Assembly (NCBI RefSeq): GCF_003334405.1
Contig: NZ_QOWM01000006.1
DNA from: Escherichia coli
Lineage (GTDB): Bacteria > Pseudomonadota > Gammaproteobacteria > Enterobacterales > Enterobacteriaceae
DNA: 64,000 nt
Direction: 5' to 3' (one strand)
Shown: in pieces, positions 37,160 through 41,005 of the stretch
Layout of the letters: each line of letters begins with the position of its first letter
How positions within the stretch are numbered: the stretch's first letter is position 1
Notes under the pieces: generated by a model
Databases searched by the model: none
Seen by the model: the letters and a program-made list of their open reading frames with translations, nothing else
Told to the model about the DNA's origin: nothing
Translations under genes and position numbers: made by a program

Positions 37160-37850
37160 GTGCAAGTTTCTGCACCAGTGACTCAACCATCAGGCTGGAC
37201 TGTTTAGCGGCAACAGCCAGGAACTCATCGAAGCTAAGATGAGACTGTTGATCGGCCACGTCGGAGATGGCGCGTACGACAACAAACGGGACGTTGAAAT
37301 TGTGGCAGACATGGGCGATTGCCGTCGCTTCCATCTCTACAGCAATGGCCTGTGGGAAGTTGTGGCGGATTTTCGCCAGACCAACAGAACCGTTGATGAA
37401 AGCGTCGCCGCTAACAATCAGGCCACGTACAGCGTTAAGATTCAGTTCGGCAATGCAGGCCTCAGCGGCAGCGATCAGTTTATCGTCAGCTTTAAAGCCT
37501 GCCGGACAGCCTGGTAACTGACCGTATTCATAACCAAATGCCGTGACATCCGCGTCGTGATAACGTGCTTCGTCCGAGACAACGATATCGCCCACTTTCA
37601 ACGTTGGTGCCAGGCCACCGGCAGAACCGGTGTTAATAATCACATCTGGCTTGCAGTGTTCCAACAGCAAAGTGGCACCCAGCGCCGCAGCGACTTTACC
37701 GATGCCCGATTTCAGAAGCGCAACCTCGGTTCCATTCAGTTGGCCGGTATAGATTTCGCAACCGCCGAGACTGATAGTTTGACGGTTTTCGATTTTGTCA
37801 CGCAGCAGCGTAACTTCTTCTTCCATTGCACCAATGATGCCGATTTTCAT
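37152..37850 (-). CDS. mtn: 5'-methylthioadenosine/S-adenosylhomocysteine nucleosidase
   Basis: 232-aa ORF; recognised as Pfs/MtnN ([13 protein letters not shown]...). Confidence 0.95.
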
Positions 37851-37933
37851 AGATTTACTCGCGATAAGCCCGATTTGAAGGCATAGTTTACCATGCGCTT
37901 ACGGGGAAGCGTATTTCTCACGCGGGAGAGGAC

Positions 37934-39451
37934 ATGGCACAGATTGATTTCCGAAAAAAAATAAACTGGCATCGTCGTTACCGTTCACCGCAGGGCGTTA
38001 AAACCGAACATGAGATCCTGCGGATCTTCGAGAGCGATCGCGGGCGTATCATCAACTCTCCGGCAATTCGTCGTCTGCAACAAAAGACCCAAGTTTTTCC
38101 ACTGGAGCGCAATGCCGCCGTGCGCACGCGTCTTACCCACTCGATGGAAGTCCAGCAGGTGGGGCGCTACATCGCCAAAGAAATTTTAAGCCGTCTGAAA
38201 GAGCTTAAATTACTGGAAGCATACGGCCTGGATGAACTGACCGGTCCCTTTGAAAGCATTGTTGAGATGTCATGCCTGATGCACGATATCGGCAATCCGC
38301 CGTTTGGTCATTTTGGCGAAGCGGCGATAAATGACTGGTTTCGCCAACGTTTGCACCCGGAAGATGCCGAAAGCCAGCCTCTGACTGACGATCGCTGCAG
38401 CGTGGCGGCACTACGTTTACGGGACGGGGAAGAACCGCTTAACGAGCTGCGGCGCAAGATTCGTCAGGACTTATGTCATTTTGAGGGGAATGCACAAGGC
38501 ATTCGCCTGGTGCATACATTGATGCGGATGAATCTCACCTGGGCACAGGTTGGCGGTATTTTAAAATATACCCGTCCGGCGTGGTGGCGTGGCGAAACGC
38601 CTGAGACACATCACTATTTAATGAAAAAGCCGGGTTATTATCTTTCTGAAGAAGCCTATATTGCCCGGTTGCGTAAAGAACTTAATTTGGCGCTTTACAG
38701 TCGTTTTCCATTAACGTGGATTATGGAAGCTGCCGACGACATCTCCTATTGTGTGGCAGACCTTGAAGATGCGGTAGAGAAAAGAATATTTACCGTTGAG
38801 CAGCTTTATCATCATTTGCACGAAGCGTGGGGCCAGCATGAGAAAGGTTCGCTCTTTTCGCTGGTGGTTGAAAATGCCTGGGAAAAATCACGCTCAAATA
38901 GTTTAAGCCGCAGTACGGAAGATCAGTTTTTTATGTATTTACGGGTAAACACCCTAAATAAACTGGTACCCTACGCGGCACAACGATTTATTGATAATCT
39001 GCCTGCGATTTTCGCCGGAACGTTTAATCATGCATTATTGGAAGATGCCAGCGAATGCAGCGATCTTCTTAAGCTATATAAAAATGTCGCTGTAAAACAT
39101 GTGTTTAGCCATCCAGATGTCGAGCAGCTTGAATTGCAGGGCTATCGGGTCATTAGCGGATTATTAGAGATTTATCGTCCTTTATTAAGCCTGTCGTTAT
39201 CAGACTTTACTGAACTGGTAGAAAAAGAACGGGTGAAACGTTTCCCTATTGAATCGCGCTTATTCCACAAACTCTCGACGCGCCATCGGCTGGCCTATGT
39301 CGAGGCTGTCAGTAAATTACCGTCAGATTCTCCTGAGTTTCCGCTATGGGAATATTATTACCGTTGCCGCCTGCTGCAGGATTATATCAGCGGTATGACC
39401 GACCTCTATGCGTGGGATGAATACCGACGTCTGATGGCCGTAGAACAATAA
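37934..39451 (+). CDS. dgt: dGTP triphosphohydrolase
   Basis: 505-aa ORF; HD-domain motif [10 protein letters not shown]. Confidence 0.95.
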
Positions 39452-39507
39452 CCAGGCTTTTGTAAAGACGAACAATAAATTTTTACCTTTTGCAGAAACT
39501 TTAGTTC

Positions 39508-39535
39508 GGAACTTCAGGCTATAAAACGAATCTGA
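39508..39535 (+). promoter_or_regulatory. sigma-E (RpoE) promoter of degP
   Basis: -35 GGAACTT (39508-39514), 16-nt spacer, -10 TCTGA (39531-39535); exact match to sigma-E consensus; about 45 nt upstream of degP ATG. Confidence 0.8.
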
Positions 39536-39580
39536 AGAACACAGCAATTTTGCGTTATCTGTTAATCGAGACTGAAATAC

Positions 39581-41005
39581 ATGAAAAAAACCACATTAGC
39601 ACTGAGTGCACTGGCTCTGAGTTTAGGTTTGGCGTTATCTCCGCTCTCTGCAACGGCGGCTGAGACTTCTTCAGCAACGACAGCCCAGCAGATGCCAAGC
39701 CTTGCACCGATGCTCGAAAAGGTGATGCCTTCAGTGGTCAGCATTAACGTAGAAGGTAGCACAACCGTTAATACGCCGCGTATGCCGCGTAATTTCCAGC
39801 AGTTCTTCGGTGATGATTCTCCGTTCTGCCAGGAAGGTTCTCCGTTCCAGAGCTCTCCGTTCTGCCAGGGTGGCCAGGGCGGTAATGGTGGCGGCCAGCA
39901 ACAGAAATTCATGGCGCTGGGTTCCGGCGTCATCATTGATGCCGATAAAGGCTATGTCGTCACCAACAACCACGTTGTTGATAACGCGACGGTCATTAAA
40001 GTTCAACTGAGCGATGGCCGTAAGTTCGACGCGAAGATGGTTGGCAAAGATCCGCGCTCTGATATCGCGCTGATCCAAATCCAGAACCCGAAAAACCTGA
40101 CCGCAATTAAGATGGCGGATTCTGATGCACTGCGCGTGGGTGATTACACCGTAGCGATTGGTAACCCGTTTGGTCTGGGCGAGACGGTAACTTCCGGGAT
40201 TGTCTCTGCGCTGGGGCGTAGCGGCCTGAATGCCGAAAACTACGAAAACTTCATCCAGACCGATGCAGCGATCAACCGTGGTAACTCCGGTGGTGCGCTG
40301 GTTAACCTGAACGGCGAACTGATCGGTATCAACACCGCGATCCTCGCACCGGACGGCGGCAACATCGGTATCGGTTTTGCTATCCCGAGTAACATGGTGA
40401 AAAACCTGACCTCGCAGATGGTGGAATACGGCCAGGTGAAACGCGGTGAGCTGGGTATTATGGGGACTGAGCTGAACTCCGAACTGGCGAAAGCGATGAA
40501 AGTTGACGCCCAGCGCGGTGCTTTCGTAAGCCAGGTTCTGCCTAATTCCTCCGCTGCAAAAGCGGGCATTAAAGCGGGTGATGTGATCACCTCACTGAAC
40601 GGTAAGCCGATCAGCAGCTTTGCCGCACTGCGTGCTCAGGTGGGTACTATGCCGGTAGGCAGCAAACTGACCCTGGGCTTACTGCGCGACGGTAAGCAGG
40701 TTAACGTGAACCTGGAACTGCAGCAGAGCAGCCAGAATCAGGTTGATTCCAGCTCCATCTTCAACGGCATTGAAGGCGCTGAGATGAGCAACAAAGGCAA
40801 AGATCAGGGCGTGGTAGTGAACAACGTGAAAACGGGCACTCCGGCTGCGCAGATCGGCCTGAAGAAAGGTGATGTGATTATTGGCGCGAACCAGCAGGCA
40901 GTGAAAAACATCGCTGAACTGCGTAAAGTTCTCGACAGCAAACCGTCTGTGCTGGCACTCAACATTCAGCGCGGCGACAGCACCATCTACCTGTTAATGC
41001 AGTAA
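39581..41005 (+). CDS. degP: periplasmic serine endoprotease/chaperone DegP (HtrA)
   Basis: 474-aa ORF; signal peptide; catalytic Ser in GNSGGAL; two C-terminal PDZ-like regions. Confidence 0.96.
   Translation: MKKTTLALSALALSLGLALSPLSATAAETSSATTAQQMPSLAPMLEKVMPSVVSINVEGSTTVNTPRMPRNFQQFFGDDSPFCQEGSPFQSSPFCQGGQGGNGGGQQQKFMALGSGVIIDADKGYVVTNNHVVDNATVIKVQLSDGRKFDAKMVGKDPRSDIALIQIQNPKNLTAIKMADSDALRVGDYTVAIGNPFGLGETVTSGIVSALGRSGLNAENYENFIQTDAAINRGNSGGALVNLNGELIGINTAILAPDGGNIGIGFAIPSNMVKNLTSQMVEYGQVKRGELGIMGTELNSELAKAMKVDAQRGAFVSQVLPNSSAAKAGIKAGDVITSLNGKPISSFAALRAQVGTMPVGSKLTLGLLRDGKQVNVNLELQQSSQNQVDSSSIFNGIEGAEMSNKGKDQGVVVNNVKTGTPAAQIGLKKGDVIIGANQQAVKNIAELRKVLDSKPSVLALNIQRGDSTIYLLMQ

Follow-up and report, generated by a model that had tools for sequence, protein, structure and literature searches.

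The stretch between dgt and degP on the Escherichia coli chromosome raises the question of how degP is placed under envelope-stress control: which sigma factor begins transcription and at which base, and what the GTAAA elements lying farther upstream contribute. We addressed it in a 64,000-nucleotide window, meaning the whole stretch of DNA that was analysed, to which all coordinates refer unless they are given for MG1655. The window is E. coli chromosome with the gene order erpA, yadS, btuF, mtnN, dgt, degP, cdaR, yaeH, and the promoter is the native degP (htrA) regulatory region in the dgt-degP intergenic space. Of 5,426 complete E. coli genomes, 5,425 contain the 401 bp around this promoter, at 99% identity or more in 5,417, where this DNA is annotated as dgt and degP. 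The degP promoter is well studied and already known to drive the periplasmic protease DegP in envelope stress.

A sigma-E promoter with a mapped start

A reading of the sequence from 39200 to 39800 placed every motif of a preliminary description, made from the letters alone, at the position it had been given (Table 1). The string GGAACTT-N16-TCTGA occurs a single time on both strands of the 64 kb window, against 0.01 occurrences expected from dinucleotide shuffles. The preliminary description had called it an exact sigma-E consensus, and this holds for the classical form, GAACTT-N16-TCTGA. That form was reportedly built on degP and rpoH P3 themselves, which makes the exactness of the match partly circular. 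The claim does not carry over to the -10 element of the consensus drawn from 28 mapped sigma-E promoters (Rhodius 2006), which reads GGAACTT at -35 and TCAAA at -10: the degP TCTGA agrees at three of five positions (T, C and the final A) and fits TCNNA. A relaxed scan of the window for sigma-E sites, allowing one -35 mismatch, spacers of N15-17 and TCNNA, returned four matches where 5.3 were expected and thus had no discriminating power; only the exact degP site stands out in the sigma-E scans. On the + strand only one further motif comes near the sigma-E consensus, GGAACTA-N16-TCGAA at 55689-55716, which by the K-12 offset falls within rseP, upstream of bamA; relaxed matches of this kind are at chance level.

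Table 1 Features of the dgt-degP region, with identity to E. coli across a 33-genus alignment where it was scored by element.
Feature	Coordinates	Strand	Basis	Identity, 33 genera
dgt (dGTPase) CDS	37934-39451	+	ORF and RefSeq annotation of identical DNA	
Curated CpxR box 'degP2', GTAAATTACCGTCAG, inside dgt	39312-39326	+	12.1 bits on the CpxR matrix, rank 13 in window	
Conserved block TTGTAAAG-N4-CAATA-N2-TTTTTTAC-N2-TT	39460-39490 (about -81 to -51)	+	33-genus alignment	columns at least 95% conserved
Curated CpxR box 'degP1', GTAAAGACGAACAAT, GTAAA-GACGA-ACAAT direct repeat, N5	39462-39476 (centre about -72)	+	PMC9600279 Table S1	
GTAAA	39462-39466			1.0 at all five bases
N5 between GTAAA and ACAAT	39467-39471			mean 0.64
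ACAAT	39472-39476			0.67, 0.85, 0.94, 1.0, 1.0
A	39477			1.0
Inverted GTAAA (TTTAC on +)	39482-39486 (centre about -57)	-	outside the curated 15-mer	0.91, 1.0, 1.0, 1.0, 1.0
TT	39489-39490			1.0
Linker to -35	39487-39507			mean 0.54
Sigma-E -35, GGAACTT	39508-39514 (-33 to -27)	+	exact match to Rhodius 2006 -35 consensus	GAAC 100%, TT 97%
16-nt spacer CAGGCTATAAAACGAA, with TATAAA at 39520-39525	39515-39530	+	length preferred by sigma-E	mean 0.63
Sigma-E -10, TCTGA	39531-39535	+	sequence read; T, C, T and final A invariant across genera	T, C, T and final A 100%; fourth base 55%
Transcription start (A), 40-nt leader	39541	+	Kim 2012, 180,844; Rfam model position 1 aligns here	
5' leader, Rfam RF02700 HtrA fourU RNA thermometer	39541-39586	+	77 bits (gathering score 52); all of the 46-nt model (1-46)	
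degP (htrA) CDS, 474 aa	39581-41005	+	ORF, ATG at 39581; identical DNA annotated serine endoprotease DegP	

The genome-wide start-site map of Kim 2012 places a start for degP (b0161) at MG1655 NC_000913 position 180,844 on the + strand, with a 40-nt UTR and the upstream sequence TGCAGAAACTTTAGTTCGGAACTTCAGGCTATAAAACGAATCTGAAGAACA, ending in TCTGAAGAACA. The offset between MG1655 and the window is 141,303, and the same offset carries the ATG at 180,884 onto 39581. Transcription thus starts at A39541, six nucleotides past the end of TCTGA and behind a discriminator of 5 nt, within the 6-8 nt beyond 39535 that had been predicted. Sigma-E promoters have spacers of 15-19 nt, with 16 strongly preferred, and discriminators of 5-6 nt (Rhodius 2006), so the 16-nt spacer and 5-nt discriminator of degP are consistent with the rules for this sigma factor. 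The Kim 2012 map also holds a start at MG1655 181,772, attributed to cdaR (leader of 691 nt), which corresponds to window position 40469 (+) within the degP coding sequence.

Expression data point the same way. When rpoE is overexpressed in MG1655, degP tops the list of induced genes, with a rise of 56-fold on arrays and 64-fold in qRT-PCR, and in a review htrA is given as the second gene for which transcription by RpoE was demonstrated. The motif, its strand, its distance from degP, the mapped start and the 56-fold induction by rpoE all agree with the sigma-E control that was first proposed for this site.

Conservation was assessed in one genome per species, scanned with a degenerate DNA pattern for the DegP N-terminal peptide PSLAPMLEKVMP, which yielded 120 loci. 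We kept the 111 in which an MK[KRT] start could be recognised and enough sequence lay upstream; these 111 species span the Enterobacteriaceae, Erwiniaceae, Yersiniaceae, Hafniaceae and Pectobacteriaceae within the Enterobacterales. In 98 of them the pattern [GT]GAAC[TC][TA]-N16-TCTNA occurs no more than 200 nt from the degP ATG, compared with 0.06 expected, and the N16 spacing is kept in nearly all of the 111 orthologous regions. Across 33 aligned genera GAAC of the -35 and the T, C, T and final A of the -10 are invariant while the spacer drifts (Table 1); the discriminator and start base have a mean identity of 59%. Motifs and a spacing that stay fixed while the spacer sequence drifts are characteristic of a functional promoter.

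The spacer also contains TATAAA, which might serve as the -10 of an overlapping sigma-70-type promoter that drives degP, the sigma-E-like motif then being incidental. Relatives lend this some substance. Salmonella htrA has a second start with a 47-nt leader, equivalent to about 39534, for which TATAAA could act as a sigma-70 -10; in Klebsiella a start at the G of TCTGA has 25 reads compared with 11 for the downstream start; and TATAAA is conserved within the Enterobacteriaceae. Outside that family, however, TATAAA is lost while GAACTT-N16-TCTNA is retained, 39541 is the only start mapped for degP in E. coli, and the gene responds 56-fold to sigma-E. A scan of 39300-39700 for consensus sigma-70 promoters and terminators found none. 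The second starts together with TATAAA suggest an overlapping sigma-70-type promoter in relatives such as Salmonella and Klebsiella, but a sigma-70 promoter as the main degP promoter is disfavoured, and that the sigma-E-like motif is incidental appears extremely improbable. Initiation at 39541 from the sigma-E motif is established by the mapped start, the induction data and the conservation.

CpxR and the conserved block upstream of the promoter

Cpx-mediated transcription of degP is said, from work of Danese and colleagues in 1995, to depend in part on the sigma-E holoenzyme, and Pogliano and colleagues reportedly obtained a CpxR-P footprint upstream of the degP -35 in 1997. Expression measurements describe the size of this input: degP mRNA rises 26.6-fold in cpxA24 and 32.4-fold when nlpE is overexpressed (pnlpE). 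With pnlpE in a delta-cpxR strain it still rises 6.4-fold, so CpxR is not the sole input, and the residual induction reflects that of sigma-E. Expression of degP in Salmonella is likewise CpxR-dependent. Overexpression of CpxR alone did not induce degP, which its authors explained by limiting sigma-E; the lack of induction under that limitation fits a CpxR that acts on the sigma-E promoter.

Forty-one known CpxR sites are tabulated in PMC9600279, including the degP1 box GTAAAGACGAACAAT, which is attributed there to De Wulf 2002. The box begins 11 nt downstream of the dgt stop codon (end at 39451) and spans -79 to -65 relative to 39541, so that it lies no more than about 100 bp upstream of the start. 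GTAAA at 39462-39466 is its 5' half, and the partner is the degenerate direct half-site ACAAT at 39472-39476 rather than the inverted TTTAC; measured against GTAAA-N5-GTAAA, the first half is perfect and the second matches at two of five positions. We built a CpxR matrix from 39 curated sites, leaving out both degP entries, and ran the scan that the preliminary description had proposed. It did not single out degP1, which scored 6.3 bits, a value equalled or bettered at 185 of about 128,000 window positions. The caution with which CpxR binding had been regarded was therefore fair for a reading of the sequence alone, where the box is at chance level, although the direct partner ACAAT at the canonical N5 had been overlooked. 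CpxR-P binding at degP rests on the secondary curated table, the CpxR-dependent expression and conservation; the sequence by itself is no proof.

Two other positions are among the top three of the window on this matrix. One, at 37844-37858 (-), scored 16.3 bits and overlaps the start codon of mtnN (...ATGAAAA), perhaps by coincidence; the other, at 59044-59058 (+) with 15.0 bits, is the curated 'skp' box, which belongs to the training set. A CpxR-like repeat with N6, CTAAA-GTTTCT-GCAAA, lies just upstream of the -35 at 39489-39504 (-) and appears in the 16-bp scan of PMC9600279; across genera only its TT at 39489-39490 is conserved. By eye, AACAATAAATTT had looked like a possible IHF site, a candidate that was dropped as a poor match to WATCAANNNNTTR with the relevant bases among the less conserved. 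A literature search for the promoter sequence returned only a primer.

The degP box resembles the CpxR-P operators of cpxP, ppiA and spy in its perfect 5' GTAAA, its N5, its location less than 100 bp upstream and the CpxR dependence of expression. It differs from them in a degenerate 3' half-site (ACAAT) and in an extra inverted GTAAA 10 bp farther on, and its partner promoter depends on sigma-E whereas theirs depend on sigma-70.

The curated list also holds a second degP entry, degP2, which lies inside dgt, and Cpx control could in principle be exerted chiefly through that box and an upstream sigma-70 start instead of the sigma-E promoter. Its presence on the list and its score and rank in the window (Table 1) speak for it, as do additional starts of Salmonella htrA, with leaders of 215 or 449 nt beginning inside dgt, and unusually conserved synonymous sites in GAATATTATTAC at 39350-39361, which hold a -10-like hexamer, TATTAT. 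This hexamer, at 39353-39358, is about 7 nt upstream of the equivalent of the Salmonella 215-nt-leader start (about 39366). The degP2 box is unconserved in its second half, however, and the third-codon-position identity is 0.51 against a background of 0.49; the E. coli start-site map gives degP only 180,844; and, with sigma-E limiting, overexpressed CpxR leaves degP uninduced. On these grounds we think it very unlikely that Cpx control runs mainly through degP2. Although the better box by score, it was set aside because its synonymous sites are unconserved; it lies in a poorly conserved stretch of dgt. Among 44 Enterobacteriaceae loci, synonymous sites are almost invariant in two other places within dgt, namely GAATATTATTAC (codons E-Y-Y-Y) and GGATTATATCAGCGG at 39380-39400. 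The GAATATTATTAC region may be an internal promoter, or the -10 of the far-upstream start.

At the sigma-E promoter itself, the upstream GTAAA/TTTAC pair is deeply conserved. In the window GTAAA-N15-TTTAC occurs once, with about 0.1 such pairs estimated by chance (GTAAA occurs 180 times on both strands), a departure from chance that is slight. Among the orthologs, GTAAA-N14-16-TTTAC was found in 97 of 111 species (0.16 expected), and the spacing was exactly N15 in 92 of these 97 loci. Its position relative to the promoter is also held: in 84 of 89 the G of GTAAA precedes the -35 by 45-46 nt. Most loci that lack the block are explained by a promoter more than 200 nt from the ATG (Hafnia, Brenneria roseae) or by a right arm that reads CTTAC (Pectobacteriaceae). 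It is this conservation across species that raises both the sigma-E motif and the GTAAA/TTTAC pair above chance.

An inverted arm under constraint

Across the 33 genera, GTAAA-N5-ACAAT-N5-TTTAC is nearly invariant, and its inverted arm is under as much constraint as the accepted left half-site (Table 1), which is the modestly new point of this analysis. The inverted arm does not conform to the direct-repeat model of CpxR binding. The centres of GTAAA, ACAAT and TTTAC fall on one face of the helix at about -77, -67 and -57, each a helical turn from the next. The possible dimer centres, -72 and -62, are classical positions for class-I activators. The whole element thus carries two perfect GTAAA arms in inverted orientation, 20 bp apart, and is conserved in at least five families of Enterobacterales. 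As a tentative reading, the degP operator may be a three-half-site element, GTAAA-N5-ACAAT-N5-TTTAC, and not a simple direct repeat.

Another possibility, which we likewise hold only tentatively, is that the arm, TTTTTAC at 39480-39486, is an A/T-tract, UP-like or bent, that would aid docking of the polymerase alpha subunit, leaving GTAAA-N5-ACAAT as the entire operator. Sigma-E promoters are A/T-rich upstream, with peaks near -48/-49 and -57/-58 (Rhodius 2006), and the arm is centred at about -57. A published model of sigma-E promoters counts degP among those with an active upstream contribution, on the CpxR matrix the minus-strand 15-mer that includes the inverted arm reaches no more than 0.7 bits, and the curated CpxR list consists of direct repeats only. 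In that same promoter model, on the other hand, the far-distal subsite shows no positive correlation with promoter strength. A39485 and C39486 are moreover 100% conserved over the 33 genera and N15 is kept in 92 of 97 loci, a precision beyond what a generic T-tract would require. Because these two bases are not T and are invariant, as is the exact N15, a third CpxR contact at the inverted arm is slightly favoured over a T-tract.

The leader and a model of degP control

The 40-nt leader matches an RNA thermometer family in Rfam (Table 1). RF02700 is defined on the 40-nt leader of Salmonella htrA, in which a fourU hairpin conceals the Shine-Dalgarno sequence at 30 C but is open at 42 C; temperature-dependent translation from that leader was demonstrated with reporter and SHAPE assays. 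The E. coli leader equals it in length and is almost identical in sequence, with UUUU (39548-39551) opposite the GAGA Shine-Dalgarno, a bulged C and a 5-nt loop, and its predicted minimum free energy (MFE) fold keeps the UUUUG:CGAGA pairing and the upper stem. E. coli and E. albertii differ from Salmonella in a C for U at 39572, the base that pairs with A39547, so that one pair of the lower stem is broken. At 37 C the predicted MFE is -3.0 kcal/mol for E. coli compared with -5.8 kcal/mol for Salmonella; only MFE values were used, as energies of the Rfam structure are not meaningful for sequences with a non-canonical pair. The E. coli hairpin is weak and no more stable than shuffled sequence (z = +0.99).

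Among 14 diverse loci, RF02700 matches only those of Salmonella, Escherichia, Citrobacter, Lelliottia and Enterobacter. The thermometer is much younger than the promoter and the CpxR block. Elsewhere in the window, Rfam matches above the gathering score include t44 RNA at 48457-48543 (+), with 83.5 bits, and the CssrA sRNA at 49382-49491 (+), with 136 bits.

As an overall explanation, we consider it very probable that sigma-E initiates degP transcription at 39541, that phosphorylated CpxR boosts initiation at the same promoter, and that a thermometer in the leader possibly adds to this. The sigma-E holoenzyme recognises GGAACTT and TCTGA, 16 nt apart, with transcription beginning at A39541. 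Phosphorylated CpxR would occupy the block at 39460-39490 and raise initiation at this promoter. Given a site that faces the polymerase on the helix, about 45 nt upstream of the -35, it is probably a class-I-type activator that touches the alpha subunit of polymerase. The weak fourU hairpin that the leader can form over the ribosome-binding site could add temperature control of translation. We infer the exact CpxR contacts, above all that of the inverted arm, as well as the activation mechanism and any thermometer function of the E. coli leader.

Since the sigma-E and Cpx regulons both count degP among their founding members, its control by the two carries little weight as a discovery. An experimentally mapped promoter was nonetheless recovered to the base by reading the letters, and the locus can be used as a positive control. 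For the operator, the equal conservation of the inverted arm suggests that the textbook 15-bp box under-describes the CpxR site of degP. If the three-half-site element is real, it implies non-canonical CpxR binding at a sigma-E promoter, for example by a dimer that can take either orientation about a central half-site common to both, or by a third monomer.
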